DNA of 64,000 bases from Neophaeotheca triangularis (lineage: Eukaryota). The translations under genes and the position numbers were made by a program. The notes beneath the pieces are model-generated. The model was given only the letters and a program-made list of their open reading frames with translations, made no database searches and was not told where the DNA came from. Where the stretch lies: assembly GCA_054600435.1 (NCBI GenBank), contig BAAIJX010000007.1:558001-622000 (forward strand), in the 5' to 3' direction. Below are positions 2,672 through 28,530 of this stretch, one piece after another (positions within the stretch are counted from its first letter, which is position 1; each line of letters starts with the position of its first letter).

Positions 2672-2866
2672 ACGGTAGCGACTGTTAGCCCTTCTTTTCA
2701 CCTTCTTCGAAGTCTCGTATTCTCATGTAGCGATAGACGTTCAGGACACCAAGACCCTCTGCTTTTCCCGATGACTGCAAATAAAGCCGATGTCTCAAAA
2801 CTCTCCATCTCAATGGCACTGTCGCTAAAAGTACGTGAAGTTCTGCGCGCCCGTGGGCGACAAGCA

Positions 2867-3676: not shown

Positions 3677-4874
3677 CCTCGCACCGGCCACGCTTTTCAG
3701 GGGAAGGTGGAGGCTTGAAAGAGCGAGGGTCTTGCGGCATTTGAACTCATGGGTTTGGAAGCAGGCACACACCGTTGTTGGGGATGAGTCGTTGGATCGA
3801 TACACAGATCATTGGTGAAGTGGAGTGTCTCCTGCTCTGTGTTCAATATTGGAAGACAGTCAAGGATCACCTCGCAGGCGTTTCCATGCTGAGATCCCAT
3901 TGTGTTAGTAAGCTGCCAAGAGTTTCTATCTCGCCTTCCAGGTTCCCTGGCTCACTCAAGATACTACTCGTAGGTACCTACCTAGATATGTAGTATGTAC
4001 CTATACTGCGTTCTACACAGCAAGCGGTAGCAGCTACCATATTATCGTATCTGCCCAAAGCGACGTCTCATACCGCGAATACGATTGGAAGGCCGGCGGA
4101 CTTATGGGCAATATGACGGCCGCATCATATCCACCTGGCTTCAAGATTGCGATCAAAAGGCCGAAGCTGGCTACAGGCGCACCGCGGATAAATCTCCCTG
4201 GCATCGCGCTCACAGACGAACGCTCGGAAGAGAACGAGTGCTCTTGAACATACTTACTGGTGACCTGCGGCAATCTGAAGGCATAAGAGCAAGAACTTGT
4301 TCGGGCTGTCTATTGCCGGAGAGCTCTGACCCAGAAAAAGAAAAACCAGTCCAGATACCTACTAGTCCTCCAACCCCGCCATCTCCCGGATCATTTCCTT
4401 TGCGTGGTCCTACACTTGTTTGGGCATTTCGTTTTTCGTCTTGAAGGAGATATTGTGCTCATTTAGAAAGTTCGCCGATCCACGAGTGGGTATGCGTGCG
4501 AGAGAACAGGAACCTTATCCTTTCTAGCTTCCTTCCAATGGCGGGGAAGGCTCGCACGCAATAGCTCCTCATGCACCTCCATACCACACCCCTGACGTTT
4601 CCCCCATACTATTCCAAGGTTACTAACAGCCAAAGCAGTCATCCTGCTAGGCCGCCAACGACGATCACTCAGGAGCTATGCGAATTCCCGAGGGGGAAGC
4701 TACAACGTATGTATAATAGTCGAATGGCATGGCTCTTGAGCTTTCGAGGTCATCTTCTTTCTCTTGATGCAGGCCCTTTCCCAATGGACAGTGTGGTGTT
4801 TGTCTGATCCGTCTCCCATATCTCTGCTCTTATGTGCTGCCATTTTCTTTGTCGTGTCTGTGTCAATAACCACC

Positions 4875-7641
4875 ATGCCTTCCATCTTCTCTTCCTCGCC
4901 TTTCCTCTCCCTTCGACCGGATAAAGATTGTGGGCGGCAGAAAGAGCAAGCTGCAGCCTCAAGTTCCAGCTACTCCTCGTCTACTCAATTCAGCCAGAAA
5001 ACAGGCGCCAACGGGCATGCTAGTCGTCACGATAGTATTCACGATATTCCGCACGGCATTCCAAACGGCTTTTCCAACGGCACTTCAAACGTCAGGTCCA
5101 ACAGGAATGACGACTTTCTACGGCTCGCAACACCTCAGCAGGACTTCCTTCTTCTCCATGGTCCTCGACAGAAATACTCTCTCGAACGAGCGCAAGAAAT
5201 ACCAGAGCTGCGCGAGGACAACGAGATACTCATTCAAGTTTTAGCTATTGGTTTGAATCCTGTTGATTGGAAAGGCCCCGATTACGACTTTGGTCAACCG
5301 TCCTGGCCTTGGATCAATGGTCGCGATTTCAGCGGCTTGGTCGTAAAGGCGCCGAGGAATCCCAGCCGCATCCAGCAAGGAGACGTGGTGTTTGGCCCTT
5401 CCACGGACTATCGCAACATCCGCAAAGCAAGCTTCCAAGAGTACTGCGTCGCCACGGATGCCAACGTCGCCCGTGTGCCACAAGGTGTCGATGTCAAGGA
5501 CGTTGCTGCTCTCGGTGTTGCTTTTGTGGCGGCTGCGCTTGCACTGGGAATCAGTTTCGGTCTTGATTTTTCTACTCTCGATGGTGCCCCTAGTGGCCCA
5601 GACTTTTTAAGGCTAGTGCGATCCCTGGATTATGCCGACATTCCAGAAGACGTCAGAGAGGAGTGCTTCAGCGGTATCAATCCTTCGGAGCGACCACAGC
5701 CTGGGGACTGGCTCGTCATATGGGGAGCGAACAGCACCACCGGACAAGCCGCCTTGCAGCTCGCTAAATTGGCCGGCATGAAGGTAGCATGTGTGGCTGA
5801 TCTGGCGAAGAGCGGACAACGTCTCGGTAGCCTTGGGGCAGACTTCATGGTTGATAGGTTCGATTCGAAACGTGCAGTAGAGATCATACGAGGGGTCTCC
5901 GGTGGCAAGTTGAGGTTCGGCATTGACACTGTTGGGAAGGAGACAGCTGGATGTCTAGAGGAGGCTTTGAAGCAGACCTCGTGGTACGGACCCAAATCAC
6001 ATCTCCTCGGACTGACCGGGACGCCAAAGCAAGCCGCGAGCGGCGTTGTCCACCATAAGGTGCCAATCAAGATCTTCCACGAAGCGCCCGTTGTGGGTGA
6101 AGCGCTCATGCAGTGGCTGGAGCAACTCTTGGTTGCAAAAAGCATCAAGCTACCGGAGGTGGAGGTTGCTGATGGAGGTCTGGCCGGGATAAATGATGCG
6201 TTGGACCGCTTGCGCTCAGGCACTGTTTCCGGGCGCCGCATCGTTGTGCCAGTGGGACCAAAGACGAGTACTGCTTCGCATTCTATCAGCTCGCCACCAA
6301 GCAATGGCGCAAACGGCACAGCGACTACCAATGGCATCTCTCATGCCGAGGGAGACTTTTCTTACGCTGATTCACTCAACTCGGACCCTGAACGAGTCAA
6401 ATTCGCGTATTGGTATGTACTTCCGATTTCTTCCTCGGCGATAGATGAAAGTAACTCTCGTACAGGGTCCCCAACGTAAGCGGCGGAATGGTCATCAGCA
6501 AAATTCCTCAACGGACTAGTTGGGATCTCAAATCAAACCAGCGATATGCCAGAATGGCCGAGAAGATGGGCTTCGAATACGGTCTGACTCAGATCCGGTT
6601 CATGGCTGGATACGGCGCGGACAACCAGCACGAGTCTGTGTCCTTTTGTCAAGCACTACTCCATTCCACCGAACGAATCAAGATGATTGCTGCCCTTTTG
6701 CCGGGACCCTGGGCGCCAGCTTTAGCAGCTAAGCAAATAGCTTCGATCGACAACTATTCCGAAGGACGCATCGCTGTGAACGTGGTGTCGGGATGGTTCA
6801 AGGCGGAGGTTTGTACATTCAGAAGCCACCGTAACCTCGCGGGACTACGCACTAACATTCAATTGTATAGTTTACAAGCATAGGTCAATGGTGGTTGGAT
6901 CACGCTGAGCGCTACCGCCGCAGCCGCGAGTTCATCGAATGTCTCAAAGGCATCTGGACGACCGACAAGTTCACCTATAAGGGTGACTTCTACCAATTCC
7001 ACGACTACCCGCTGAAACCCAAACCTCTGAACCTGCCCGGCCGACCCTGGCCCGAGATCTTTCAAGGCGGCAACAGTGACGATGCCATCGACAACGCCTC
7101 TCATGTCTCAGACTATTACTTCATGAATGGCAACACGCTCGAGGGTTTCCAGTCACAGATCGCTGACGTTAGCGCCAAAGCCCTCAGAGCCGGCCGACAA
7201 GGCCAGGTACGCTTCGCCGTCAATACGTTTGTCATCTGCCGCGAGACGGAAGAAGAGGCTATTCGCGTACTACGGGAGATTCAGGGTAAAGCCGATGTCG
7301 ATGCGGTTGAGGGATTCCGTCAACAAGTGCAAAATGCGGGCGCTTCGACGGCAAACAAGCGCGGAATGTGGCAGGGCTCGGACATGCAGGACCTCGTACA
7401 ATACAACAGTGGCTTCAAGTCAAAGCTCATAGGCAGCCCTCGGCAGATCGCTGATCGAATATGCTTACTGAAGAGCCTGGGAATCGACATAATCTTAGTG
7501 GCGTTTTTGCATTACGAGGACGAGATTGAGCAGTTTGGAAAAGAGGTTCTGCCACTTGTTAGAGAGCTGGAGAAGCAGGGCAGAGGAAAGGATGAGGAGC
7601 TTGAGATTAAGTTGAACGGGCATGTCTATCGGCAGCAGTGA
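4875..7641 (+). CDS. Fusion of an MDR/GroES-like NAD(P)H oxidoreductase and an SfnG-like (dimethylsulfone/alkanesulfonate) luciferase-like monooxygenase, about 883 aa
   Basis: Exon 1 has MDR motifs (GLNPVDWK, GRDFSG, IWGANSTTG). Intron 6413-6465 gives VKFAYW|VPNVSGGMVISKIPQRTSWD and intron 6809-6870 gives KAE|FTSIGQWWLDHAERYRRS, both SfnG-type; FQGGNS and DLVQYN follow. Confidence 0.85.
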
Positions 7642-7731
7642 TCGATCGGTGTGGTGAGCGCGCTTTTACATATCACTACGAGTGCTTACAGAGTGAAAGG
7701 GGCCTGTTTGATTTTTGTATACCACATTGGC

Positions 7732-9747
7732 TCACATCAAAATATATTCGGTCAAGCATTCGCTTCTCAATCCCCACGCTGAGCAATCCATCAGACCGTC
7801 AGCAAACGCAAAGCCAATCAATCGATGGCCATCGCCAGACTGCCTGAGGATGGCCGGAAGCCTCGACCAGCACAGCAGTACCAATAGATCGTCAGGCCGA
7901 ACTGAGTGATGAGTATCTCCCTGAACACCAGAAGAAGTTACAAAGAAGCTCCTCGAGGCCTTCCTGGCGCACACCCTCTCGTGGAACTCGTCTCCAAACA
8001 TCTTCAACTCGCTAAGCCAAGACGCTTCGTCCAGCTCTGGAGGCTTTCCCATCAGAGTCGCGTGCCACGTGGTGAAGGCCGAGAACTCCAAATTTTCCGA
8101 GCTCATCTCCCATGTCAGTACGTCATGCAGAAGCCGGAGCTTGTCTGCTTGCGTGCTTGACCCGGCAGCATCGGCTGATAATGCTGACCATGCGTACATC
8201 GTCCTACTCATCTCGAGCAAGGCTTGCTCTTCTTCTCGTTCATCGCATCTTGTACCGCTCTTGGCGTTCAAGTACAGACGATGGTAGAACTCTCTTGCTG
8301 AGTCTGGGGCCGCAGAAGTCTTCGATATAGTAGAGTGTACCGATCCCTGCACACGCATTGATGGTCGAGGAGGCGAAAGATCAAAAACGGGAGGGGGATC
8401 CCATGCTGTCAATCTCGGAAGCTTCTTGAACCAGAAATCCTCAGGCACCATCCAACGCAAGTCGACGCTGTCACCCTCCCAGTCGAAGGCCCAGGATGGG
8501 AATTCCAGCGACGTTTCCTCGTTGCTCACCTCAGCGAGCATGTCAAGAGTATTTGAAGCTTTGATGATGGCGACTGTGGCTAGAATACATACCACGGACA
8601 TAGGCCGGTTGTAATCGGGCTCGGGGTAGTGCTCACAGACTCTTCGGAATATTGCATACAAGGAATAGAGCTTGTCACGCGAATCGGTAGCGCGAAGACT
8701 CCGAGCCTGCACCAGCACCTCTCGCAGATGATACCAGAACTTTGGCCCGCCTTCATGCTGCTGCAACAGGCGATGCACCCACTGCAGATCCGTATGTGTG
8801 TTGAACCCGTCCAGGCGATTCCAGAAACTTGAAGCGTAGTCGGCCGAAGCAATCATTTCGAACCAGAAAGGCCGCAGCAACCGATGAGCAAAGCGTGCAG
8901 ATTCGAATGAGCACCACGATTGACCGCAGATGAGCACTGCGTTCGTTGAGACGGACGTTTCCTGCAGCGTCCAGACTCGTTCAAAGTATGTAGTGTCCAT
9001 GAAGTCCAGCCATGGGTGGAGGTGGCCTTCATGAAGACATTCGGTGATCTCTTCTACTTTTTGAGAAATTAGTATAGCACTGCCAACAGCCCGAGCATGA
9101 CTGCTTGTAATTGTGAGCGATGGAGAAACCACACGACTTTTTAGTGCCCTCATGAGCCATTCGCAGGTACTACCAAACCGTGAAACCCTTACGAGCATAC
9201 CTTGAAGCCGACAAACAACCCGCCACACCAGCTCCCGAGCCTTCTCAGCAAAGCCCTCTTCCCTAATGCCCCCCAGCTCAACCTCCAAAAAAGGTCTCAA
9301 CCGTTCCAGCGCAACAAAATGGCGGAAAGCCCAAGTCGTTGATGGAGACCCAGGTCCTAGCCACACAAGCACACGCCCCGCCCGTCGGTAGATCTCCCCC
9401 ATCAACTTGACCTGTTGCGCACGTTCCTCGTGATTGGTCTGGTCGATACAGATGGCATCGACAAAGATAGTTCGGCTGCGCTTCGTCCGACGCAGCATTC
9501 GAAGCGCCGCGGCGCAGTTCCGGGTTACTGACAGTCTTTTCCCGCAGCATTTGACGGCAACGCTGTCGGTGGGAGACCCCCAGACGTATGAAAGAGCTTC
9601 AAAGCGTCGACATGGGTTTGAGGGATCGAGGTCTAACTCTTGCAAATCGCAGGAGAGCTCAGTGCTGGTGTCTAAAGAAGGGTGGAGTATTAAGGCGCGA
9701 AAGGATCGCTTGTGCTCGAGGGGTTCGTGGGTGTATTTGTCTTCCAT
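7732..9747 (-). CDS. HET-domain (HET-6-like) heterokaryon incompatibility protein
   Basis: Motifs FEALSYVWG, FVDAICIDQ, ERAQQVKLMGEIY, YFERVWTLQE, ATDSRDKLY, PSWAFDW; probable in-frame intron 9057-9200. Confidence 0.9.
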   Translation of the reverse strand: MEDKYTHEPLEHKRSFRALILHPSLDTSTELSCDLQELDLDPSNPCRRFEALSYVWGSPTDSVAVKCCGKRLSVTRNCAAALRMLRRTKRSRTIFVDAICIDQTNHEERAQQVKLMGEIYRRAGRVLVWLGPGSPSTTWAFRHFVALERLRPFLEVELGGIREEGFAEKARELVWRVVCRLQGMLVRVSRFGSTCEWLMRALKSRVVSPSLTITSSHARAVGSAILISQKVEEITECLHEGHLHPWLDFMDTTYFERVWTLQETSVSTNAVLICGQSWCSFESARFAHRLLRPFWFEMIASADYASSFWNRLDGFNTHTDLQWVHRLLQQHEGGPKFWYHLREVLVQARSLRATDSRDKLYSLYAIFRRVCEHYPEPDYNRPMSVVCILATVAIIKASNTLDMLAEVSNEETSLEFPSWAFDWEGDSVDLRWMVPEDFWFKKLPRLTAWDPPPVFDLSPPRPSMRVQGSVHSTISKTSAAPDSAREFYHRLYLNAKSGTRCDEREEEQALLEMSRTMYAWSALSADAAGSSTQADKLRLLHDVLTWEMSSENLEFSAFTTWHATLMGKPPELDEASWLSELKMFGDEFHERVCARKASRSFFVTSSGVQGDTHHSVRPDDLLVLLCWSRLPAILRQSGDGHRLIGFAFADGLMDCSAWGLRSECLTEYILM

Positions 9748-10210
9748 GTCTCTTGGACGTAGGTGCAGGTTGCGCTGTGCTCTGTGATGGGCCTACCTAC
9801 TCGGGGAGCTGAAGCGTTTGGTTTGACCTACATATGGTAGCTTTCTCAAATATCTTAGTGCTATTGAGATGCGTCTGGTACGTTACCTACAGAGGTAGGC
9901 AGCCTTATCAGAGGTGCTGATGTTGACCGGTGAACACGCAAGTCTTTGCTATTGGCTGTGATATGTATACGCTAGTGGCGGGATATCAAGCTCGTTTTTG
10001 TATGTCAAACAGCATGCGGTGGGCATTCACAAGGTCCCAAGGTTGTTGCGACGATCGAGAAGACGTTGATTTGTGTAAGACAACTTATTCATCAATTTGA
10101 AGTGCTTAACACGCTCGTTACGGCCGCATCACCATCTACGCCATGAATCCAGAATAACCACAACCCGAGAGCCAACGCCATACTGAACGTCTCTCAAAGC
10201 CAGTCACACC

Positions 10211-13008
10211 TCAATGATACAGAGCACTTCTTGCCCTATCCGTCTCCCTCGTTGCATTATGCAAATGCTGTGTCACATCCAGCACAGTCGTAACATGTTT
10301 CTTACTCAACCCTTCACTACGTTTCGAAGCCAACAACTGCGCAGTCTTGAGCACGTTCTTGATTTGACGACCGTTCATATCCATCAGGCAGAGGCGGTCG
10401 AGGTCTTTCTTGCTGATGGTGTGAGGAAGCGTGCGGGAGGCGTGGAGTTGACGGGCTTTTTCTTCTTCCTCGGCAGACGTATCATCGTTGCTGTGGTCGT
10501 TTGTTCCGTTCGTGATATTGTTGGTGGCATCAATTGCTTTCGACTTCGCAGCGGAGACGAGTGGCTTAGATGGTCTTTCGCGAGCGGTGGCTTGGGCAAC
10601 ATTGTGCTGGGCGAGAAAGTTGGTCCAGACGGTACGTCTACTCTCGGCGCTGAGTTCTGGGTACTCAAGAGAGATGTGGATCCTGCTCTGGAAAGCTGCA
10701 TCAAACGTCTCGACGCGGTTGGTCGTCAAAAACATGATGCCCTCGTAGTACTCAAGCACCCGCAAGAAGATGCTGACGAGTTTGTTCCGCTCAAGTTCGC
10801 GCAGGCTTCGAGCAGTGAGGAAGACATCAGCTTCATCGATGAGGAGAATGGCGTTCCATCTCGTACAAATCTCCAAGACGCCTTGAAGTTTCGACTCCAC
10901 CGAACGAGGGTCGAGTCCAAGGTCGCCGGCAGACATCATGTACAGAGGTACATTCATCTCTTCACTCACGCTCTCCGCCGTCAAAGTCTTTCCCGTGCCT
11001 GGCGGACCACACAGCAGCAGGATAATGCCTCTTCCTTTGCCCTCGATGACATCATCGAATTGGCCGTGGTAGCTTTGCTGCGTTTCCGTGAAACCAAGGA
11101 TAAGCTCCTTCTGGTTGGCAGGCAAGACGAGGCTATCAAACGCCCGGCTGTTGAAACTGATGTCTTGCACTGCATTGACGAACAGGTTCAGCCAGATCTT
11201 CTCCTTGAGCGAGTACCCTCTGACGAGCGGCGTCATTATCATCTTCTGTTCGTCAGTAAGAGGCGTCCGAGCAGCAGTCTCTTCTTCTTCGTCAGCAAAA
11301 GCACCGTCCATGGGCATACCCCCCTGGCTGTCACCTTCATCGTATTCGTCATACATGTCGCCGCCCAGGGAGTCGGAGCCGCCGTCAAACATTGCGAGTG
11401 GATCGTCGAAGGCTCAGAGACTGTCGTGGGACGAGGGGTCCTTGATGTTCAGCGGTGTGACATAAACCGCCATGTTGGGGTTGAATTTGTTCCAACCATG
11501 ACCGTCAATGACAATGCGAGACTTGATCGAGTACTTCTCCTTTATTCCCATGCTGTTAAGCCGCCAACCGATCCCGTTGTAGGCACGATAGTGAGGTCCG
11601 GCGAAGCTCTCGACTTTAGCGCCTCGCTCAATCAGCCTCACTTTCAGCTCAGCCTTCTCAGAGTGGAAGCTGAATGGTAGTGCAGCCAGGCTCGCAATGG
11701 TCTTGGTCCCTTCGTACTTGCGGATGCACATGTTGAGCTTGTTTGTGCCGAACCTCGTACCATCCCAGTCGATGTACTGACAATTGAGCCAGTAGACTGG
11801 GCTTCCGTCTCTGTCATGTCCGTAGTGTGACGAACTGAGTCTGAAAACCCGGTCCTGGCCTTCTTGCTTGCTGTATACGTAGGAACCAGGCTGGAATAGA
11901 GTCCAGAGATGCTCGTATGTCATGACACCCTTGTTCTTCATATCAATTGATGCGTCGATTGTGCTTTGGAATTCCTTGACGAGGAGTTCGTACAGCAATT
12001 CAGCATGCTTGAGCTCATCGAGCTTCACCCCGTCTGCAGTACCATCCACCTTGCTTTGCTTAAGTTGTTCAATGGCAGCGGTGAGTACACTCCATCTGTG
12101 AATGATCGGTTCAAATCGACCTGAGAATTCCAGTCGCTGCAGCCCGACGGTAACACCAGGATAGCCGGCGAGGACTTTGCCAAGGAGATCTTTCAGAAGT
12201 GGGGATTGCACGACGATTGAGTGAATGGAGAGTACCTTGCGCGGGTCGTTGTATATCTTGACGTTCCTCACAAGTAGCGCCCATTTCTGCGTTTCCGCAT
12301 CCTCGGCGGGCTTACCAACGTCTTCGGGAATGGTGGTTTGCCATTGGAAGCGGCCACGCTTGTCTTCCTTGCCACTGTAGAGGTTCTTGTACCCAGCAGA
12401 CATGCCGACATCAGCTGGATCGAGTTTGACCATCTCTTGTGTATTGCTTGTTTTCTCAGTGCTTTCAGGGGTTCCACTGGCGCCGGTGGGAGAGGTAATA
12501 GGGGTCGAGGATGTCAGACCATTAGTGGTCGTTGAACGAGGCTCTTTAGCTGCAGAAAGTTAGCGTAGTATTTCCCTCGCTGCGGGTGAGCAGCCATGCC
12601 TGGTTGCAAAGACAAACCAGCCAAAAGGTCGTCCACGGTTGCTGTGTCGTTTGGCATGGCGGACTTTTGGAGATGAAGACTCTCGCCCGGCTTCAGCACG
12701 AGTTGAACGAGAGCTTCCAAGAGCAGCGTTGAAACTGACTTTGTCTCTCTTGGTGCTGTCGTCTCCTTGGATCCGCCATCGTCCGTCGCAGGAGGAGCCT
12801 GGACAGGCATAGTAGGATTCTGCCCTTCCATGTCCGAGTCGGAAGAGACACAGCCTTGTCTTCTTCGTCGCTGCCTCTCTCTTCGACGCCTCCAGGCAGC
12901 TGTTCTATTCTCACGCGCTACGGATTCAAGAAAGCTCTGATGTATCAGCTCGCTCTCCTCGCAATCGAGATCCGGCAAGTCGTCGTGAAGAGGTTCTTGG
13001 ATGTTCAT
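10211..13008 (-). CDS. Fungal AAA+ ATPase with a long N-terminal region and one in-frame TGA at 11414-11416 (possible pseudogene)
   Basis: Walker A GPPGTGKT, Walker B LLIDEAD, LTTNR and SRIH. ORFs 11414-12433 and 10211-11392 share a frame across a single TGA. Intron 12550-12617 (GTTTGT..GCTAAC..CAG) links the upstream exon; start uncertain. Confidence 0.8.
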
Positions 13009-14900
13009 GTAGCTGCCGTGTGAGAGGTGTCAAGTGTCTTTTTAAGGCAGAGTAGGGGGGTCTGAGTCAAAACACGCTGCTGCCTGGGAACCACTAGTGT
13101 TGTCTAGACTTCAAGTGTCTCAGGATTGAATGGTATCGCTGCCTGTGTTGAACAAGGCGGGAATCGTGGGAAAATGACTCCTACTAGAATAGAGAATCAA
13201 TTGAGCTCTGCCTACGACTGCATCCCGCGCGCTCGTGGCATGTCTTTGAGGGCGAGCTGTCCGTTTCGAGCTAGGGTGTATGCACAAGGACGCCTGCAGT
13301 GCGCCTTACTGGCTGGCCCAGTGTCGCTGCTCACCGGAGCCATGGGCGCTTCCGTCAGAGCGTGCTGTGTTGCGGCTTGCCCATCATCCAGTAGAGTGCT
13401 AGTATCTTGACAAGTTGACCGGTCACAGATGAGGTCGCTACCTAGGTACCTTGGTTTGAGAAGTGTCGTTGGACAAGTGCCAAGCAAGGTGGAGCCATCA
13501 AATCCCGAGGTACAGACATGCCGACTTCCAAGGTTCCTGAATCCTGGATCAACTTGGCCGCTGCAAGCTCGGCGGCAATAGTGACAACGAACAGGTTCAA
13601 TAATGCAGCATGAGCAATGCCGAAAAGCACAAGGGTAATGGAAGCCTCACACTGCGATTCTTCTCGTACATGAGAGACTGGCCGTAGAACCATAGATGTA
13701 GGTATCGAGACCATCCTCATCTGGAATTGACATCTGATCATTGAAACGGTCGGCGACAGCTTTGGCCTTGGGCATACACTGCATTGGACTGTTCGATAAA
13801 TCGCCTTCATGCTCAACACCCTTCCGACGAAGGAGTAGTCACAATCCTTCCATTATGCTTGCAGGGCGGCGGTACATGTTAACCTATCTCGCCGCGCTTG
13901 CCCTCGACAGCTCGCTCTTCGATTCATCACCCCGCCTTGCCTTAATGGCCCAGGGACGGTGGTTTATGTTTATGGTGCCTACGTGCTTCTTCTGGATTCG
14001 AAAAGGCGACATGTTCAAGTTCGGGACTTTGGTCGACGCGGGGGGCGAGAGCGGTCTCTCAGCAGCTAATGACTTGAGGAATAAATCAATGGCGCCTACA
14101 GCCGCATCGGGCACCCGTAAGGAAGGAGGGTTGCGATGACGAGACTGGCTCGATGCATAAGGGGGAAGCCGACCGCAGTCCCGGCAACGGTACGTTACAT
14201 CTTGCGGAAACCCATGATGCCAGCGCGCGCTCCATTGAGTCTGTCGTACGGAGGACAGGTGGAAGATGGACGGTCTATCTGCATTCATTTGAAGTGGCGC
14301 TCCGCGGTCCTCAGGCTACGCGCAGTGCCAGTGTCAGAGCTCAGCGTGAGCGCGAAGTGTTGGCCACGCGGCGCTCGAGAGCGCTCGGATCGAGGAAGGG
14401 TGAGAATGTCTTGCTGGAATCGAACTCACAGACTATAGACGGTAGTTGGTTAATTTTGATTACAAGCGCAATGATTTGGGTGTCTCACTCGTTATTTTCG
14501 ATTCTCGTTCGATTTTGGGTGCGAGATCTTTAGGTGACGTTTTAGTGCTGACGATGTAAGAGCTCGATTTTGCCTGAGAACTCGCAACTGTCGTCAGAGG
14601 CCCTTTTGAACGCAGGTTTCGAGGTACAGTGCTCGGCATTATGATCGAGAACAACCGTCTGACCGATATGATGGTCATATGTAGTGGTTGTTGTTGAAGG
14701 ACCAACACCACGAGGGCTAGAGTTTGGGTACGTCTTCTTACCACGTGATTGCAGTCAACGCGGAAGGTTAAGCGGAGGTAGCGCAACTCTCAAACAACGT
14801 CTCGTCAACTGGACATGGGAAAGAACAACACTGTAGGAGGTTCATTATGTGCCGCGCCATGTAGCATGGATTCTTTACTGATCATCACACTGGAATCAAA

Positions 14901-15869
14901 ATGACAGCTCCATCTGCTCGCAAGCAGACCATTAAACAAGCAAAAGCGTCATTTAAATCTCGGAACAATTGCCCGATATCAGACAAGGAGAAGCGCCAAT
15001 TAGAACGGGGACTAGAGCTCGACCGACGTGCGAGATGGGCTCGAGAAAAGGAGAAGCGCAAGACAGACGCTCAGAAGGAGAAGGCTGAGAGGGACAAGGC
15101 GCAGAAGCATGCCGTAGTGCTGAGCACGCAGAGAGTCGGGGATAGATTTGGGTTCAAGAGTAGTCAGCGGCATTTGGGAGCCTTCTTTGGGGGAGGTGCG
15201 AAGTCTGGACCAGCCCAAAACCAGCCTGTTCTGAACGAGACGAGCAACTATGAAGCTACGGGAGAGCAAGAAGAGGCTGAGGATGGATTCGGCGGCGACG
15301 AGCTGGACGATGACAGCCTCCTAGAAGCTTTCGAGACACCCAAAGATATAGAACCGCCAAAAGCCAGCCAGTTCGCTAGAGACTTGTTCCTCATGCCTCC
15401 CCCGCCTCTCAAACGAGCGAACGTCCCCATGGCAGATGCGACCCCCGCATACTCCGAGGACGATCTGAGCTGGCTCGAAGACGACATGGAAAGTAGTACC
15501 CAAATTGCTCGAGATCTCGACTCCCTCAGTAGGTCTGCCGTAGAAGATGCGAAAGAGGACGCCAGGACAGCATCGTTCGGCTCTAGTGACTTCGATCTTA
15601 CGCCCGAGGAGATTGATATGCTCGACCCCCCCAAACAGTCGAAAGACGATCAGGCTCGTATCTTAATGCCTCCACCGCCAACGCCTGCCCCGACAGCGCG
15701 GAAGCAAAAGTCGTCGCGGAATTCCGAGAAGGAGCTGCGACCGCAGACGGATAAGCAGAGTGCTGTCTCTCCAGCTCAGCCGACCTCTTCGGACCCTGGC
15801 TTTACATTATCGCAACTGGAAAGCTTCGTCGAAGACGATCTGCAGCTCACGCAAGCGGCACCTGGATGA
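14901..15869 (+). CDS. Hypothetical protein (basic coiled-coil N-terminus, acidic/Pro-rich C-terminus)
   Basis: 322-aa ORF with coding-like composition; no domain recognised. Confidence 0.7.
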   Translation: MTAPSARKQTIKQAKASFKSRNNCPISDKEKRQLERGLELDRRARWAREKEKRKTDAQKEKAERDKAQKHAVVLSTQRVGDRFGFKSSQRHLGAFFGGGAKSGPAQNQPVLNETSNYEATGEQEEAEDGFGGDELDDDSLLEAFETPKDIEPPKASQFARDLFLMPPPPLKRANVPMADATPAYSEDDLSWLEDDMESSTQIARDLDSLSRSAVEDAKEDARTASFGSSDFDLTPEEIDMLDPPKQSKDDQARILMPPPPTPAPTARKQKSSRNSEKELRPQTDKQSAVSPAQPTSSDPGFTLSQLESFVEDDLQLTQAAPG

Positions 15870-17428
15870 AAGCATTATGTCCTGTGTAGAAAGCCTTAGT
15901 AGGGGCTGACTTGGGCATCTCTACGAGGTCGCGAACAAAGGACGTGATCTCCTCTGAATTCAAGCAGCAAGCTTAGAGTTCTGACAAAGGGGAATCCCTC
16001 CCACCGCTCGGAACTCGGATCAAGCATCTCATCACTCCGTTTCATTGGTATTAGTCTACTAGACGCTCTGCCTACACAAGGATGCCGCTGTACCGAGCAC
16101 ACGCCTAGAGTCAACTATGGCGTACAATCAGGTTATCATTGTTGGCGATTCTATCTTAACACCTTCTGAATCTCGACTTGTCCGAGCGGTTGGTGTGAAA
16201 GCGGATAGAGGCTTTTCGCGGATGTCTGTCGCGACATGACTTTGATCAGGAGCGAATGCTACACGACGTCAAGGTGTGCTAAAATACTCACGCTGTACGC
16301 AACAATCCTGCTAACACGGTTCTCAGCATCGCTACCCCAACGCCAGCATTGAATAGCAATGCGCGACATGTTGCGTCCTTGTACGCCCAAAAAGGCGATT
16401 GTTCAAGGGAAACCGCCACTACACAGGAGGGACAGTCCACTAGATAGTACTGGAAAGCGAGGAGGATGTAAGCGTGACAACCTTCCTCTACTGAAGTGTC
16501 ATAGTGGTAGGGAGAGCGCAGCGAACCTGGTCGCTATGCTTGCGACCAGACTGTCTGCTTCAGAGGGCTGTCGTCAATGGAAGGAGATTTGATGTCGGTG
16601 GAAGAGGTCTACTTGCCACAGCGTTTCGTTCTACTAGAGGTTGGTATATCGTGCTACCTGGTACACGCAAGTAAGTATCTCTCATTGTCTCCCGTCTTCT
16701 TGAACCTCCTTGTCGCCGCGCTTTGTATCATACCCCCCTCTTATGGATCGTAAAAGCGAAAGTGTCTGAGCTCTTCCTGTGGGGCAGTGGGTGAGGCGCG
16801 ATGAGAAGACTTTGGCCGTGCGAGATCCAGGCGGTCAACCGTAGAAGCTATTGCTATGGAATGTTCCTGTCACCCCTTTGGACTCCTGCTGAGGGTACTG
16901 TGGATACATGTCAGGCTCTATACGTATCCAAGGCAGACCATATCAAAGCGTATAGCTACCTGCGCGCCTGCTGCCCTCCTCCCTCTGAGTATACTAGACG
17001 CCCCTTCACTGAAAAGCGTACCTTCACATTCACGTCTACCGCCTAAAGCGTGCTTAACCCCTATTCGTCACCCTATTCGTCACCAGCTTGTGAATTCCTG
17101 CCGGATCGAGCTTACTGTCGCCTGCCTTAGGCATTAGCGCCGACGGGAGCCTGCGGTTGGTGGAGAGTTCCGCGTTGCCTGCAGGTTCTGAGGTCATTTG
17201 CAAGGCCTCGTGCCTTCCAGATTGGTCACTAGCTTGGCGCTGCGCCTCTCCCAAATTCCCACCTACTTAAGAGCCTTCCCTTTCGTTCCAAACCTACAAC
17301 CTTTCTCTTCCTCTCTCCTAAACACAACACCTTCCGACACCTCCTTCTACCATACCTTCCAACCTCTTCAACCCATACCACCAACTACTACTACTCATCT
17401 ACCACATCCACCCTCTCTGTCCGCCAGT

Positions 17429-18603
17429 ATGAAGGTCTTCCTTCAGTTGGCTGTCATGGCTGCCGGTTTCACCACCATGGTGGCCGGCGCTCCGCTTCAG
17501 CCTTCCGAGACTGAGGTTACTGTAGGCACACTGCGATTTTCCGCCAACTCCACTTCATTCTAACATTCTCAGACCCTCGACTCCGCGGCTTTCGAGCCTG
17601 ACCACTACAACTCGGCTGTTCGTAACATCCAGCAATGACTATTCACTCACAACACCCACTGACAATCTTCAAGGGCCCTGTGGCTTTCGGCGTCACAACC
17701 CCTGTCTCTGTCGCCTTTTCGGCCGCCACTACCACCCAGCGCTCTTCTCCTTGGAACATCATCGAGAAGGATGTCAACAACGTCGCTGCCGCCAAGTCCA
17801 ACAAGTACACTGGTTTCAGCAACGCCCGCATCACCCGTGGCCCTCCCCTCCAAGAGGCCAACAGCTGGATCGCTCGTGCTGTTCCGACCGACGGCCCTTC
17901 TCCTGTGAACGCCGGCGACGATTCTGGCGACGCCGACGTCGAGGAATCTCCCACCACCGTCAACCGCGGCAAGGTTCCTGGTGAATGGGGCCCATGTGGC
18001 TTCTGGCACAACTGCAAGGACCCTCACAACACCGCCCACCCATTCCTTACCCTCATCACCAGCGCTGCGCCCAAGGTCGAGGAGACTCCCGTTCCGTCTT
18101 TCGAGCTCCCTTCTCCCATAAAGGAGGGACGCAACCTTGTCGACAAGCGTGTCCCTCCTCCGGATGTTCTTGTAAGTCAACACCTCTTCTCACACTCGTC
18201 GACCGCCAGCTAACCCTCACCCAGGAGCAACTCTGCAACAAGGGTTACCTCAAGTTCTGCACTGCCGTTCCCACCAACACTGTTCTCGACAAGCGCGTTC
18301 CTCCTCCTGACGTTGTCGTAAGCAAATAACTTCCTCTCACCCTCCATGACTGCCCGCTAAACTCCACTCAGGACAAGATGGTTGAGCTCTGTCTCGAGGG
18401 CAACAGCAAGTACTGCGACGCCCTCCCTGACAACCACATGGAGAAGCGCGCGCCCCCTCCGGAGATCATCGTAAGTAGACTCCCTTACCGACATCGGATG
18501 TGAGCAACGGCTAACCTATGCTCAGGACGAGATGACTGAGCTCTGCGACCGCGGCTTCACGAAGTACTGCGACGCGAAGCGCTTCCAGTCTCCTCCCGCC
18601 TAA
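17429..18603 (+). CDS. Secreted Kex2-processed repeat precursor (KEP-like), 301 aa, with three C-x7-C peptides
   Basis: Signal peptide MKVFLQLAVMAAGFTTMVAG. Exons 17429-17521, 17573-17617, 17674-18171, 18225-18317, 18372-18470 and 18526-18603, all separated by phase-0 GT-AG introns with CT[A/G]A-type branch sites. Repeats KR-[VA]PPP[DE]xx..LCxxGxxK[YF]C..KR. Confidence 0.85.
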
Positions 18604-20218: not shown

Positions 20219-20925
20219 GGTCGCTGCCGGAGGCTTCAAAGTGTGAAGTTGCGCTTTGCTCGCTAGCGTCGTGCGCCGAATTTGAGCCTGCCAAGAGTTG
20301 ACACTTATCGCGACTTATCGTCACGTGCAGCTCCAAGGTCATGACTCGTGCGAAACTCCGACGTGAACTTTACAACTTCACGCGTGCAGCAAAAGCTTGC
20401 CACTGCCACTACTTTCTCCCCACCTCCACCTCCACCACCATTACTCCTACCATCGACACCACCTTTGCGCAGACAACGGCGCATCTTTATCTTCGTCACC
20501 GCGAGCTTTCGCACCGTCAGAAACTTCACCATAGCGACGCGCGCGATAGCGAGCACTCCAACTTCGTTCCCAGGCCGGCCGTGTGCCGAAGCCGACCTCC
20601 CTTCACTTCCTCCGATATCCTATTGCTTGGTTGCTTCACGACCTCCGTGAACTACAGGCGCTACGCTGTCAGAGTGTAAGGCTCCCTTCCCCTCCCAATG
20701 TCACACCTCAAACTTCAGCTGCCTGAGGGCTGGTCGCCACGTCGCGGTCACCCGACTGAGAAATCTGCGACGTGGTGGTGCACAGTCGACGAAGGCAAAT
20801 TCGACAACATTGTGTGCGCTCAATGCGCCGCTAAATGCGCTTTTTGGGGTGAAGACAAATCGGAAGAAAGACAAGAAGCTAACGAGCCTGAAGTCGAGCC
20901 CCCACAACGTTCAAAAGACAGCACC

Positions 20926-23900
20926 ATGGCAGACATACCCCCACCTCCTCCGTCCGACGATGGGATCCCACCCCCACCCCCAGGCATGGACGACGTGCCG
21001 CCACCTCCTCCTCCCGTCGACGAAGCTACTCTTAAGCGGATACAGCTTCGTAAAGAAAAGAGCGAGAGATATGCGCGCCAGAAACGCCATGCCTTTTCCG
21101 AAAAGAGAAGAGCCGCCGGCCAGTCGACCCAGAAGGTTGACATGCCTGCTCATCACTTGCGCAAGATCATCAAGGACATTGGGGATGTTTCGCACAAGAA
21201 GCATTCCAACGACAAGCGCAGCTACTTGGGTGCGCTCAAGTACATGCCGCACGCCGTCATGAAGTTGTTGGAGAACATGCCGATGCCATGGGAGAGCGCG
21301 CGCGAGGTCAAGGTGCTCTACCACGTCAACGGTGGATTGACGCTCGTCAACGAAGTCCCGAGAGTCATTGAGCCAGTCTTCCACGCGCAATGGGCTACCA
21401 TGTGGGTGACTATGCGTCGCGAAAAGGGTGACCGCAGACACTTCAAGCGCATGCGCTTTCCCCCATTCGACGACGAGGAGCCACCGATGAATTACGCCGA
21501 GAACATTGAAGGTGTTGAGCCGCTCGAGCCAATTCAGATGGAGCTTGACCCAGACGAGGATGGACCAGTCTTCGAGTGGTTCTACGACCACCGCCCCTTG
21601 TCCGACACGGAACACGTCAATGGCCCAAGCTACAAGACCTGGAACATGAACATTGAGCAAATGTCGACTCTTCAGCGCCTCAGCAACCCCCTCTTGAGCG
21701 ACATCACCGATCCAAACTACTTCTACCTCTTTGACATGCCTGCGTTCGCGACTGCCAAGGCTCTCAATGTTGCCATGCCAGGAGGACCAAAGTTTGAGCC
21801 GCTCTACAAGGACATCGACCCCAACGATGAGGACTTTGGCGAGTTCAACGCGATTGATCGCATCATCTTCCGTCACCCGGTGCGCACAGAGTATAGGGTC
21901 GCTTTGCCGTACCTGTACAACAGTATGCCCCGTAGTGTGCAGCTCGGCCCGCACAGCCTGCCCCTGTGTGTCTACATCAAGAACGAAGATCCCAACCTTC
22001 CCGCTTTCTACTTTGACCCCGTCATCAACCCGGTCTCGAGGCGCAAGCTATCCAAATACCTTGATGGAACCCACGAAGACGATGTGTACGGACACGGCGC
22101 CAGCACTGAGCCCGATACGGACGAAGAGGGCGGTTTCAGCCTTCCGACGCTGGCTGAACCCTTTATGGACGACGAGGAGATCGCTCCGGACGAGACTGCT
22201 GCCGCAATCTCACTCTGGTGGGCCCCGTCTCCCTTCAACAGGCGCAGCGGGCAAATGGTTCGCGCGCAAGATGTACCGCTCGTCAAGCAGTGGTATCTCG
22301 AGCACATGCCGGGAAAACAGCCCACCAAGATCCGCGTATCTTACCAGAAGCTGCTCAAGACATACGTGCTGAACGAGCTCCACCACCGGCCCGACAAGAG
22401 CATGAACAAGCAGAACTTGTTCAGGAGCTTGAAGCAGACCAAATTCTTCCAACAGACCACCATCGACTGGGTTGAGGCAGGATTGCAGGTCGTCAGACAG
22501 GGCTACAACATGCTGAACTTGCTCATCCACCGCAAGAACCTCACATATCTGCATCTGGACTACAACTTCAACCTGAAGCCCGTCAAGACTTTGACCACCA
22601 AAGAGCGGAAGAAGTCGCGCTTCGGAAACGCTTTCCATCTCATGCGTGAGATTTTGCGCTTAACCAAGCTTATCGTTGACGCCCAGGTGCAGTACCGCCT
22701 CGGCAACATCGACGCCTTCCAGCTTGCCGATGGTATTCTCTACGCCTTTAACCATGTTGGTCAGCTTACGGGAATGTACCGCTACAAGTACAAACTCATG
22801 CACCAGATCCGTACCTGCAAGGACCTGAAGCACTTGATCTACCATCGTTTCAACTCTGGACCAGTTGGCAAAGGCCCCGGTTGCGGTTTCTGGGCTCCCG
22901 CCTGGAGGGTCTGGCTCTTCTTCATGCGTGGCACCATTCCGATCCTTGAGCGCTGGTTGGGCAATCTACTCAGCAGGCAGTTCGAAGGTCGTCACAGCAA
23001 GGGTGTCGCCAAGACAGTCACCAAGCAGAGAGTCGAGTCTCACTTCGATCTCGAACTCAGAGCGTCCGTCATGGCCGATATCATGGACATGATGCCCGAG
23101 GGCATCAAGCAAAGGAAGGTCAACACTGTCCTGCAGCATCTAAGTGAGGCTTGGCGCTGCTGGAAGTCCAACATTCCCTGGAAGGTGCCTGGTCTGCCCA
23201 AGCCAATCGAGGACATCATCCTGCGTTACGTCAAGAGCAAGGCCGACTGGTGGGTGAACATTGCGCACTACAACCGTGAGCGTATCAGGCGTGGTTCGAC
23301 CGTCGACAAGACTGTGGCCAAGAAGAACTTGGGCCGCCTCACTCGTTTGTGGCTCAAGGCTGAGCAAGAGAGGCAGCACAACTACCTCAAGGACGGCCCG
23401 TACGTCACCACCGAGGAGGGTGTGGCCATCTACACTACTGCCGTGCACTGGCTTGAAAGCCGCAAGTTCCAGCCGATTCCCTTCCCTAGTGTATCTTACA
23501 AGCACGACACCAAGATCCTCATTCTTGCGCTCGAGCGCCTGCGCGAGTCCTACAGTGTCAAGGGCCGCCTGAACCAGTCGCAGCGTGAGGAGCTTGCACT
23601 CATTGAGCAAGCTTACGACAACCCTGGTACCACACTTTCGCGCATCAAGCGCTTCTTGCTCACCCAACGTGCTTTCAAAGAGGTTGGCATCGATATGAAC
23701 GACAACTACAGCAGCATCAACCCGGTCTACGACATCGAGCCCATGGAGAAGATCACAGATGCCTATCTCGACCAGTACCTCTGGTACCAGGCCGACCAGC
23801 GCCGTCTGTTCCCTCCATGGATCAAGCCTTCCGACTCCGAAGTGCCTCCGCTACTCACCTACAAATGGGCCCAAGGCATCAACAACCTCAAGGACGTCTG

Positions 23901-26900
23901 GGAGACCAAGAACGACGAGTGCAACGTCTTGATCGAGACCAGGCTCGACAAGATCTATGAGAAGGTCGACTTGCTTATGCTCAACCGTCTCTTGAAGCTG
24001 ATCATGGATGCGAACTTGGCGGACTACATCACTTCCAAGAACAATGTGCAGCTCAACTACAAGGACATGAACCACAGCAACCACTACGGTTTGATTCGTG
24101 GACTGCAGTTCGCGGCTTTTGCATATCAGTACTACGGTCTGATTGTGGACTTGCTCATCCTCGGGTTGAATCGTGCTTCCGAGATGGCAGGCCCGCCGCA
24201 GAGCCCCAACGACTTCTTGCAGTTCAAGGACAGAGCTGCCGAGACCAACTCGCCCGTCCGTCTCTACACTCGCTACATCGATAAGGTGTGGATCTTCTAC
24301 CGGTACGATGAGGAAGACAGCAGAGACCTGATTCAGAGATACCTCACCGCGAACCCGGACCCCAACTTCGAGAATGTTATTGGGTACAAGAACAAGAAGT
24401 GCTGGCCAAGAGATGCGCGAATGAGGCTGATGAGGCACGACGTTCATCTCGGCCGCGCCGTCTTTTGGAACCTGAAGAACAGCCTGCCCCGCGCCATCAC
24501 CTCTGTCGAGTGGGACGACACCTTTGTCAGCGTATACAGCAAGTACAACCCCAACCTGCTGTTCAGCATGAATGGCTTCGAAGTTCGCATCTTGCCGAAG
24601 TGTCGAAACCAGAACCTCGAGTTCAAGACTGGTGACGCGAACTGGTCTTTGGTGGACAACGAAACCAAGGAGCGTACCGCGCACGCTTTCTTGCAAGTCT
24701 CCCACGATGATATCCAGAAGTTCAACAACCGCATTCGCCAGATCTTGATGAGCTCTGGCTCTACCACCTTTACCAAGATTGCCAACAAGTGGAACACTAC
24801 GCTCATAGCGCTCTTCACCTACTACCGTGAGGCAGCCCTCGTAACGGTTCCACTGCTCGACTGCATTGTCAAGAATGAGACCAAGATCCAGACCCGTGTC
24901 AAGATTGGCCTGAACTCCAAGATGCCGTCGCGTTTCCCGCCTGCCGTCTTCTACACGCCCAAGGAGCTTGGTGGTCTCGGAATGCTTTCGGGCTCCCACA
25001 TTCTCATCCCTACCAGCGACAAGCGTTGGTCTCAGCAAACCGATGTTGGCGTCACCCACTATCGCGCCGGCATGTCCCATAACGAGGAGACATTGATCCC
25101 TAACATTGTTCGATACATCAACCCGTGGGAAGCTGAGTTCACCGACAGTCTGCGCGTCTGGACCGAATACTCGCAGAAGCGCCAGGAAGCCAACCAACAG
25201 AACCGTCGCCTCACTCTCGAAGACCTAGAGGACAGCTGGGACCGCGGTCTCCCCCGCATCAACACGCTTTTCCAGAAGGATCGTTCTACCCTCAGCTTCG
25301 ACAAGGGTTTCCGGGCTCGTACGGAGTTCAAGAACTATCAGCACATGAAGTTCAACCCCTTCTGGTGGACGAGTCAGAGGCATGACGGCAAGCTGTGGAA
25401 TCTGAACGCCTACAGGACCGATGTTATCCAGGCTTTGGGTGGTGTGGAGACTATTTTGGAGCACACGCTCTTCAAGGCAACTGCTTTCCCATCCTGGGAG
25501 GGTCTCTTCTGGGAGAAGGCGTGTTTGGCCTACGACACGCGACTACTTCGCTACGATGGCTCGGAAGTCCTTGTCCAAGACGTGAAGGACGGTGATGAGC
25601 TGCTGGGCCCTGACGGCACTGCTCGTAATGTCAGAAACACTGTCCGCGGTCAGGAATGCCTCTACAAAATCACTGTGGGAGGCGGCGTAGAGCCTATCCT
25701 GTGCACACACAACCACATTTTGGCGATGCAGAAGATCAAGCAAGAGCATCAAGGAACTTTGTACGCTGGACCAAGCACTCAGTCAGAGGACGTCCAAGAT
25801 GTAGAGGTGCTGCCTACCGCTGAGAAGAAGTTCGACTATGTGGACATGACAGCCGAGCAGTTCGCTGGCCTCGATGCTGAGGAGAAGAAGTACTATCGCC
25901 TGTACACCTCTCAAGACAGCTTCATGATCATGGACATCGAGCTGCAAAAGAAGCCTGCCAAATGGGCTGGGTTCCGTGTCGATAAAGACCAGCTTTATCT
26001 ACGTCACGACCACCTTGTCCTTCACAACTCTGGCTTCGAAGAGTCCATGAAGTACAAGAAGCTCACGAACGCCCAACGCTCCGGTCTGAACCAGATCCCA
26101 AACCGTCGCTTCACCCTTTGGTGGTCGCCTACCATCAACCGCGCCAACGTGTACGTCGGCTTCCAGGTTCAACTCGATCTTACCGGAATCTTCCTTCACG
26201 GCAAAATCCCGACCCTCAAGATCTCGTTGATTCAGATCTTCCGTGCCCATTTGTGGCAGAAGATCCACGAGTCGGTCGTGATGGATCTCTGTCAAGTCTT
26301 CGACCAGGAGCTTGAGGCGCTCGGCATTGAGACCGTTCAAAAGGAAACTATCCATCCCCGCAAGTCCTACAAGATGAACTCGTCCTGTGCCGATATCCTT
26401 CTATTCGCAAGCCACAAGTGGAGCGTCAGCAAGCCGAGTCTGCTCTACGACAACAAGGATGTCATGGACTTTACGACTACGAACAAGTTCTGGATTGATG
26501 TGCAGCTACGTTACGGTGACTACGACTCTCATGACATAGAACGTTATGTTCGCGCGAAGTACCTCGACTACACCACCGATGCCCAGTCCATCTACCCATC
26601 TGCCACCGGTTTGATGATTGGTATCGACTTGGCGTACAATCTCCACTCTGCGCACGGTCAGTTCTTCCCGGGTCTGAAGCCTCTGATCCAGCAGGCCATG
26701 GCCAAGATCATGAAGGCCAACCCCGCTCTCTACGTGCTCCGTGAGCGTATCAGGAAGGGTCTCCAGCTGTATGCCAACGACAACAGCACCGAGTTCTTGA
26801 ACAGTCAAAACTACTCCGAGCTTTTCAGCAACCAGATACAGCTCTTCATCGACGACACCAATGTCTACCGTGTCACCATTCACAAGACATTCGAGGGCAA

Positions 26901-28530
26901 CTTGACTACCAAGCCAATCAACGGTGCCATCTTCATCTTCAACCCACGTACTGGTCAGCTCTTCTTGAAGATCATCCACACTTCTGTTTGGGCTGGTCAG
27001 AAACGTCTTGGTCAGCTCGCCAAGTGGAAGACTGCCGAAGAAGTCGCGGCGCTCATTCGCTCTCTGCCTGTTGAGGAGCAACCGAAGCAACTCATTGTCA
27101 CTCGTAAGGGTCTTCTCGACCCTCTCGAGGTGCACTTGCTCGACTTCCCCAACATCAGCATTCGCGCTTCAGAGCTACAGCTGCCCTTCCAAGCTGCTAT
27201 GAAGGTCGAGAAGCTCGGTGACATGATCTTGCGCGCCACCGAGCCGCAGATGGTGTTGTTCAACCTTTACGACGAGTGGCTGAAGGGTATCTCATCTTAC
27301 ACTGCCTTCTCGCGTCTGATCTTGATCCTCCGTGCTCTCCACGTCAACCAGGACAAGACCAAGCTTTTGCTGCGTCCGGACAAGAGTGTCATTACGCAAG
27401 AGCACCACATTTGGCCTTCTCTCTCCGACGAAGACTGGGTGCAGGTCGAAATCCAGCTCCGCGACTTGATTCTCAACGACTACAGCAAGAAGAACAACGT
27501 TTCTACTGCCTCTCTCACCAACTCCGAAATCAGGGACATTATCCTTGGTATGGAGATATCTGCTCCCTCTATGCAGAGACAGCAGGCGGCCGAGATTGAG
27601 AAGCAGCAGGAGCAACAGTCAATGCAGACCGCTGTCACCACCAAGACTCAGAACGTACACGGCGAGGACATGGTGGTCACCACGACAAGCAACTACGAGC
27701 AGCAGGCTTTCACCAGCAAGACCGAATGGCGCACCAGAGCTATTGCCACCAGCAACCTCCGGACCCGCGCCAACAATATCTTTGTCAAGTCGGAAGAGAT
27801 CCGCGAGGACAGCGAGTCCAATGTCTACATCTTGCCTGCCAACATCCTCAAGCGCTTCATCGGTCTCGCCGACTTGCGCGTCCAGGTCGCTGCCTACCTC
27901 TACGGTGGCTCTCCCGCGGACGAGCCCAAGGTGAAGGAGATCCAAGCCGTCGTCCTCGTCCCCCAGGTCGGCAGCACTCGCGAGGTGCAGCTCCCGCAGA
28001 ACCTCCCTGAGCACGACGTCCTCGAGGAAATGGAGCCACTGGGTGTCATCCACACGTCCGCCACGCAAGACACGGCCTACATGACAGCCCACGACGTCAC
28101 CACTCACGCCAAGCTGATGCACAAGTATGACGAATGGGACTCCAAGACAGTCACTATCAGTGTCAACTTCACTCCCGGCTCCGTCTCCGTCACAGCCTTC
28201 AATCTCACTCCGAACGGCTACCAATGGGGCGTCGACAACAGGGACCTCACTTCCGAGCAGCCCGCAGGCTTCTCCACCGCTTTCGGCGAGAAGTCGCAAC
28301 TCATCCTGTCCAAGATGACTCGCGGCCTGTTCCTGATGCCCGACGACGAGCGCTGGAACTACAGCTTCATCGGCTCCAGTTTCGGCGACCAAGACCGTGC
28401 TAAGCATCAGTACGTTGATGTTGCTGCTCCCAGCAAATTCTACGATGATGTGCATCGTCCTGTTCACTTCACCAGGGGTAAGCAGACGAGGAAGTTGCGC
28501 ACTCACGATCGTGAGGATGTTGCCGATTGA
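20926..28530 (+). CDS. PRP8: Pre-mRNA splicing factor Prp8 (single uninterrupted ORF, contains an intein)
   Basis: Conserved blocks [59 protein letters not shown] and [16 protein letters not shown]. Likely start is the Pro-rich MADIPPPPP at 20926; the frame is open from 20698. Confidence 0.97.
25522..26028 (+). mobile_element. PRP8 mini-intein (169 aa, no homing endonuclease)
   Basis: Insertion between FWEKA and SGFEESM, the known PRP8 intein site. Starts Cys (CLAYDT), has a block B TxxH (CTHNHIL), ends VLHN followed by +1 Ser; no LAGLIDADG motifs. Confidence 0.95.

Follow-up and report, generated by a model that had tools for sequence, protein, structure and literature searches.

The window examined here, a stretch of 64,000 nt from contig C7 of the Dothideomycete Neophaeotheca triangularis, carries on its forward strand a gene that is predicted to be split into six exons (Table 1). 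Its upstream neighbours are a 334-aa ORF without assignment, genes for DUF7025/AAA, HET, and dehydrogenase proteins, and two luciferase-like genes; PRP8 follows downstream. The region 972–13029, in which two luciferase-like monooxygenase genes flank the zinc dehydrogenase and are followed by the HET-domain and DUF7025/AAA genes, looks like an accessory block. The 334-aa ORF (14865–15869, +) is basic in its N-terminal and acidic in its C-terminal half and matches nothing in Pfam, and a perfect 12-nt tandem duplication (17059–17082) precedes the ATG of the split gene by ~350 nt. PRP8 (20680–28530, +) contains a mini-intein of ~170 aa (ORF residues 1614–1783) that starts with Cys, ends with His-Asn, and gives no endonuclease match. 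Among the 30 + 37 ORFs scanned of the 212 in the window, no member of an oxidase, protease, transporter, or receptor family was found.

Table 1. Predicted exons and introns (window positions) and candidate peptides (residues of the NCBI protein P0001); masses are monoisotopic, with one disulfide assumed in each peptide
Feature	Position	Strand	Length	Content
Exon 1	17429–17521	+		aa 1–31; start codon (ATG) and predicted signal peptide, most probably cut after Gly20
Intron 1	17522–17572	+	51 nt	phase 0; in-frame stop on retention
Exon 2	17573–17617	+		aa 32–46, pro-region; 0/15 codons end in A
Intron 2	17618–17673	+	56 nt	phase 0; weaker GTTCGT donor, AAG acceptor; same model in P0001
Exon 3	17674–18171	+		aa 47–212; pro-region, first KR (aa 204–205), N-terminus of peptide 1
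Intron 3	18172–18224	+	53 nt	phase 0; inside peptide 1, seven codons after KR
Exon 4	18225–18317	+		aa 213–243; cysteine core of peptide 1 (C216, C224), KR 235–236, start of peptide 2
Intron 4	18318–18371	+	54 nt	phase 0; repeat position as in intron 3
Exon 5	18372–18470	+		aa 244–276; core of peptide 2 (C250, C258), KR 268–269, start of peptide 3
Intron 5	18471–18525	+	55 nt	phase 0; same within-repeat position
Exon 6	18526–18603	+		aa 277–301; core of peptide 3 (C283, C291), KR 294–295, 6-aa tail, TAA
Peptide 1	aa 206–234		29 aa	C216, C224; net charge −1; 3171.6 Da
Peptide 2	aa 237–267		31 aa	C250, C258; net charge −5; 3454.6 Da
Peptide 3	aa 270–293		24 aa	C283, C291; net charge −4; 2711.2 Da

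The five predicted introns are all of the GT..AG type and in phase 0, with a CTRAY-like branch site in each, and retention of any one of them brings in an in-frame stop. Splicing yields a predicted protein of 301 aa, as an earlier note on this DNA had proposed, and all six exons match, in order, a hypothetical protein of 301 aa from N. triangularis at NCBI (P0001), which was found with exon 3 as the query. Since this record probably stems from automatic annotation of the same DNA, it counts as a second gene caller rather than as biological proof. The weakest splice signals of the model are those of intron 2, and a transcript that skips exon 2 would likewise preserve the reading frame and encode the same peptides. 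A 216-nt RNA contig from one marine metatranscriptome run (X1, share 0.11) is identical to the gene over 17739–17954 in exon 3; with a depth of 2.6, no junction crossed, and two short unrelated pieces besides it from the same run, it is a weak hint of expression, not proof.

Several features set the coding sequence apart from chance. The pattern C-x2-G-x2-K-[YF]-C occurs three times in the gene and in none of 2000 codon shuffles, and the genome as a whole has seven DNA matches to it, the three here and four scattered ones, against three for a control pattern. The scattered matches were rejected as similar genes, since they fall in stop-rich or unrelated frames, the best of them in a short stop-bounded frame, and their number is about that of the control. 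The pattern KR-[VA]-PPP-[DE] has three matches in the 25.4 Mb genome, all in this gene, which is single-copy, and four or more KR pairs arise in only 0.19% of 200,000 residue shuffles. All six exons are low in third-position A (0–5%). With 3% third-position A and 11% purine at fourfold sites, the gene is more biased than all 11 other window ORFs (8–26% and 27–52%, respectively) and is on par with the alpha-pheromone gene of the same genome (5% and 9%); codon bias of this strength suggests high peak expression. Between repeats, pN is 0.22–0.29 and pS 0.45–0.65, and the corrected ratio of 0.25–0.42 is biased low because the 22 codons per pair were hand-picked for conservation. Taken together, the codon bias, the excess of pS over pN between repeats, and an intron position common to all repeats argue that the gene is maintained.

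The same intron position bears on how the repeats arose. In every repeat an intron falls seven codons behind KR, successive repeat units begin 146 and 153 nt from each other, and intron 3 still resembles intron 4 (core identity 0.66, equalled in 0/300 shuffles), the other nine of the ten intron pairs being not significant. Given the shared position, the spacing, and the resemblance of introns 3 and 4, the repeats are likely to stem from tandem duplication of an intron-containing unit of ~150 nt.

Precursor anatomy and candidate peptides

The signal peptide and long pro-region predicted earlier fit the protein. Residue 2 is basic, hydropathy ranges from 1.0 to 2.3 across the first 15 nine-residue windows, and Gly20 is the sole site within residues 15–27 that obeys the −3/−1 rule. 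Past aa 25, the top 19-residue hydropathy is 1.28, so no transmembrane segment is predicted. The stretch from aa 21 to 203 is rich in Pro, Ala, Thr, and Ser (40% of the pro-region), has six monobasic Arg in its exon 3 part and no N-glycosylation sites, and is predicted to be disordered when the whole protein is modelled by AlphaFold2 with no alignment. The only dibasic sites of the protein are the four KR pairs listed in Table 1, none of which lies in the first 203 residues. They delimit three units exactly as the earlier note had written them, each with one copy of the cysteine motif. The fourth KR, with its tail of 6 aa behind repeat 3, was not mentioned in that note and would be expected if cleavage must set the C-terminus of repeat 3. 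Likewise unmentioned was a fourth cysteine pair, C154 and C160 (C-x5-C), situated behind the single Arg 144 where the pro-region is rich in Trp, Phe, and His (aa 144–161, window ~17965–18020, +). In a study in which a Coprinopsis KEP was expressed in Pichia, non-repeat peptides were released at single Arg (PMC9769878), which makes a fourth peptide with C154 and C160 possible, albeit unsupported.

The GRAVY values of peptides 1–3 are +0.09, −0.41, and −0.47, and helix 1 is amphipathic in each of them (hydrophobic moment 0.47–0.59). Modelled alone by AlphaFold2, peptide 2 is predicted to form helices at residues 4–15 and 19–24 with Cys at positions 14 and 22 (pLDDT 82.8), and in the model of the whole protein each repeat is helical and the remainder unstructured (pTM 0.19). 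These folds are single-sequence predictions whose output gives no S–S distance, and one disulfide per repeat is an inferred feature. There is one Tyr in each repeat, the position of which deviates in repeat 1.

Searches for relatives returned little beyond the protein itself. Against 5.8 billion clustered proteins, exon 3 gave one match among 60 candidates and the repeats, searched at near lengths, one among 90, in both cases the protein itself; in shorter proteins, none of 35 candidates matched the repeats at E 10. A phmmer search of 1.84 billion representatives again recovered only the protein, and none of the 146 and 155 pattern matches in metagenome contigs was confirmed. PDB sequences yielded one weak match (E 0.81), Pfam two (E 0.26–0.28), and the ESM Atlas none in one search and a best score of 0.78 in another, all to be read with the caveat that short diverged repeats may escape every such search and that close genomes are possibly few in the databases. 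Fold searches produced no clear match (best Z 2.7 and 2.5), which does not show a new fold. The family thus stays as unrecognised in Pfam, PDB sequences, and phmmer representatives as it was at first sight, and a clear match to a characterised family, named at the outset as grounds for giving up the proposal, was sought by sequence, profile, and fold and was not found. For want of a homolog, residues cannot be ranked by conservation.

Relation to known Kex2-processed precursors

Kex2-processed repeat proteins (KEPs) have been catalogued in two surveys, which give rules that can be computed. Both ask for an N-terminal signal peptide, and Le Marquer 2019 also asks that no transmembrane segment be present and counts proteins with at least four fragments between KR/RR sites, at least three of them similar, and with repeats amounting to at least 15% of the length (PMC6339444); the present protein has five fragments, three of which are similar, and a repeat coverage of 23.9% (24 × 3/301). 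Umemura 2020 takes at least three repeats of 8–100 aa between Kex2 sites (PMC7329392), and those found here measure 29, 31, and 24 aa. By the computable rules of both surveys, and with a Kex2 gene in the genome, the protein would classify as a KEP, in agreement with the earlier note. Ascomycetes average 5.25 KEPs per strain in the Umemura survey, and 2560 of 7878 catalogued KEPs are without homolog and 78% without a DUF3328 neighbour (PMC7329392). An orphan KEP free of an oxidase is therefore ordinary. The likeness to the KEPs described in both surveys (PMC6339444, PMC7329392) extends to the predicted signal peptide, the lack of a membrane segment, the three KR-bounded units, and the lack of DUF3328 nearby; what differs is the unit itself, which is long (24–31 aa), predicted to be folded, equipped with C-x7-C and an X-PPP cap, and split by an intron. 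Judged by descriptions rather than by catalogue sequences, a long, folding, Cys-stapled, proline-capped, and intron-split unit is a less usual type. No entry containing 'phaeotheca' occurs in the supplement files of the two surveys (PMC7329392 and PMC6339444), and no description of such peptides was found in a literature search that did not use the motif and from which most subscription papers were missing.

Precursors of alpha-pheromones in ascomycetes, particularly the subgroup with two Cys, share with this gene the secretory KR-processed repeats, two Cys with Gly between them, and strong codon bias. According to one survey, many alpha-pheromones of Dothideomycetes belong to a subgroup with two Cys (PMC6339444). 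The two-Cys likeness, the X-Pro after KR, and a nearest ESM Atlas cluster called 'Pheromone 1' (at 0.78, a score that about one third of shuffled proteins reach, no more than a lead) led to a search for the canonical pheromone gene of the species. The pattern W-C-x3-G-x2-C gave 149 matches, and none of the four inspected among the 100 listed was a precursor. A KR-spacer pattern, of whose 66 matches two were clustered, located it on C5 at ~576400–577300 (L030:600–1502, +): an intronless gene for 301 aa with six near-identical F-C-x3-G-x2-C cores (F-C-G-A-x-G-A-S-C-A), KR/RR plus EA/DA/EP spacers, and core N-terminal extensions that are unusually rich in Lys and Arg. Since this canonical precursor sits on C5, the gene studied here is not the alpha-pheromone ortholog, and that candidate is largely closed. 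That the gene encodes a second or diverged mating pheromone for Ste2, itself encoded in the genome, is in turn very improbable: the KR followed by an X-Pro dipeptide, the two conserved Cys per repeat, and the pheromone-like codon bias speak for it, but the place is already taken on C5 by a precursor whose basic cores with C-x6-C and trimmable spacers contrast with the five introns, three diverged acidic units, C-x7-C, and X-PPP start of this gene. Short near-identical C-x3-G-x2-C cores are absent here, the units being diverged, 24–31 aa long, and of the form C-x2-G-x4-C, and promoter 8–10-mers are shared with the pheromone gene no more often than the background.

Dikaritin precursors (ustiloxin, phomopsin, and epichloecyclin GigA) also combine a signal peptide, here a predicted one, with Kex2-bounded repeats, and Tyr is present in the repeats found here. 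The repeats might thus be cyclised by a UstYa oxidase from another locus, a reading helped by the one Tyr per repeat and by the UstYa matches in the genome. However, these matches, at least three, are all on C6, C28, and C21 and none on C7; a dikaritin precursor would have such a gene among its 15 nearest, and here neither the contig nor the scanned window ORFs gave a UstYa/DUF3328 match, so the observation that no such oxidase lies nearby stands. In the Umemura survey, UstYa genes are on average 3.09 genes from the precursor (PMC7329392). Moreover, the Tyr of repeat 1 differs in position, and the residues conserved among repeats are Cys, Gly, Lys, and Pro. A dikaritin-type RiPP (ribosomal peptide) precursor has, on balance, hardly any probability. 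On C28 near 133,000 (minus strand; L008, ~460–1020 from end), a one-intron gene for a secreted protein adjoins a UstYa/DUF3328 gene; the protein has cysteines about every 11 residues and a charged, helical-looking C-terminal half and is no KR-repeat precursor.

Proposed processing and possible action

One P_proprotein match (E 1.4e-28, an 893-aa frame on C57) marks a Kex2-type gene, and the genome contains two DPP-IV-type genes. At three of the four KR sites, P4 is aliphatic (V, L, or M), and P1' is never Pro, whereas Asp occupies P3 of sites 1 and 2 and P4 of site 4. In one study, Kex2 prefers an aliphatic P4 and Asp at P3 is unfavourable (PMC8528282).

Such less than ideal P3 or P4 residues at three of the KR sites, together with the Pro/Ala/Thr/Ser content of the pro-region, would suit an uncut secreted or wall protein in which an O-glycosylated stalk carries three packed tandem disulfide-stapled hairpins in the style of Helicobacter Sel1-like repeats. 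The Hcp repeats of Helicobacter have C-x2-G-x4-C spacing. Their helix-turn-helix junction is held by a disulfide, and the disulfides of HcpB and HcpC tether adjacent helices (PMC3851747). The units here, in contrast, are separated by KR sites, which precede each repeat at the identical place, close the last one, and occur nowhere else, and support from Pfam or folds is lacking: neither P0001 nor exons 4–6 match Sel1 in Pfam up to E 10, the whole-protein model has the low pTM given above, and the best fold matches are those already cited. The Sel1-like protein LpnE scores Z 2.3 (rmsd 3.3, 31 aligned) and is tied with unrelated helical proteins (best Z 2.5). The likeness to Hcp is at most a convergent local motif, and an uncut protein is improbable.

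Release of the peptides would proceed as follows. The precursor would enter the ER and lose its signal peptide, presumably after Gly20; one disulfide would form in each repeat (C216–C224, C250–C258, and C283–C291); and Kex2 would cut after the four KR pairs, with Kex1 trimming the ends to give peptides of 29, 31, and 24 aa, in line with established Kex2/Kex1 biology. As far as it can be read from the sequence, this part of the scheme is very probably correct. The VP or AP, then PP, that follows KR formally matches the XA/XP signature of Ste13, but dipeptidyl aminopeptidases are not known to cut before Pro, and the N-terminal X-Pro-Pro-Pro should thus block trimming, thereby capping the peptide and starting the helix. 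In the predicted fold of each mature peptide, an amphipathic first helix of acidic character turns at a Gly into a second, shorter helix, with the disulfide as staple. Secreted at a high peak level, the peptides might bind an extracellular protein target and act as a non-mating signal among the organism's own cells or toward neighbouring microbes. No gene for a receptor or target turned up among the window ORFs scanned. The statement in full, namely a KEP-type prepro-peptide that releases three folded mini-ligands for an extracellular protein, is put forward tentatively, its chances lying somewhat below even.

Of the roles that the earlier note left open (signalling, antimicrobial, or effector), the pheromone form of signalling is largely closed by the separate canonical gene, and a cationic antimicrobial has become less likely in view of the net acidity. 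Since the peptides are acidic (−1, −5, and −4) and one of them is predicted to fold as a helix-loop-helix, a secreted protein-binding ligand is preferred over the latter. Antimicrobial or membrane-active peptides, such as candidalysin or fungal defensin-type peptides, would agree with a predicted disulfide-stabilised amphipathic helix-loop-helix, with diverged copies in a lineage-restricted gene, and with the presence 4–10 kb upstream of HET and AAA genes such as characterise conflict loci; set against their charge, their low mean hydrophobicity, and the lack of a match in Pfam families or solved structures, this role is quite unlikely.

Ustilago Rep1 and Candida Ece1/candidalysin resemble the present case in that unmodified peptides with an amphipathic segment are released by Kex2, but there is no sequence match, and the units described here are acidic, on average hydrophilic, and Cys-paired. 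Structural or surface-active peptides of the Rep1 kind, self-assembling at the cell wall or within the extracellular matrix of meristematic clumps, would account for the high-expression codon bias, the amphipathic helices, and three diverged copies of ~30 aa. Rep1 peptides form amyloid-like fibrils (PMC9769878), and the cells of black yeasts lie embedded in extracellular matrix (PMC13000284). With peptides that are hydrophilic and acidic on average, predicted to be helical rather than beta, and present in three copies only, such a function is unlikely. A signal-like, secreted ligand that binds a protein is hence favoured, as an inference from the predicted properties, over the surface-assembling, antimicrobial, uncut, pheromone, and RiPP readings. 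A lack of any measurable role is nevertheless a real possibility, because in the Coprinopsis study knockout of kep genes was without phenotype and the synthetic KEP peptides showed no antibacterial activity (PMC9769878).

A bolder and rather improbable extension would be a non-mating peptide-hormone system, in which folded, protease-capped, salt-adapted acidic mini-hairpins, perhaps with the aromatic C-x5-C loop as a fourth peptide freed from the pro-region at single Arg sites, signal density or salinity and aid the endoconidial/hyphal switch. In other species of marine black yeasts, a quorum cue, not identified, was suggested as a possible cause of density-dependent switching (bioRxiv 10.1101/2021.05.16.444389), and N. 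triangularis is described as changing its form with salt (PMC13000284); no link leads from the gene to the switch.

For most KEP peptides no function is known, and the described ones are in the main short and linear, pheromones with two Cys, or RiPPs cyclised by an oxidase. This gene is one orphan among thousands of KEPs and has no family. It nonetheless supplies three exact, synthesizable candidates of 24–31 residues that are predicted to represent a folded, disulfide-stapled, and proline-capped type, and given that the host is a culturable salt-tolerant black yeast whose true pheromone gene is now located, masses, controls, and assays can be specified. In addition, the gene illustrates how a KEP may grow through duplication of an intron-containing unit.
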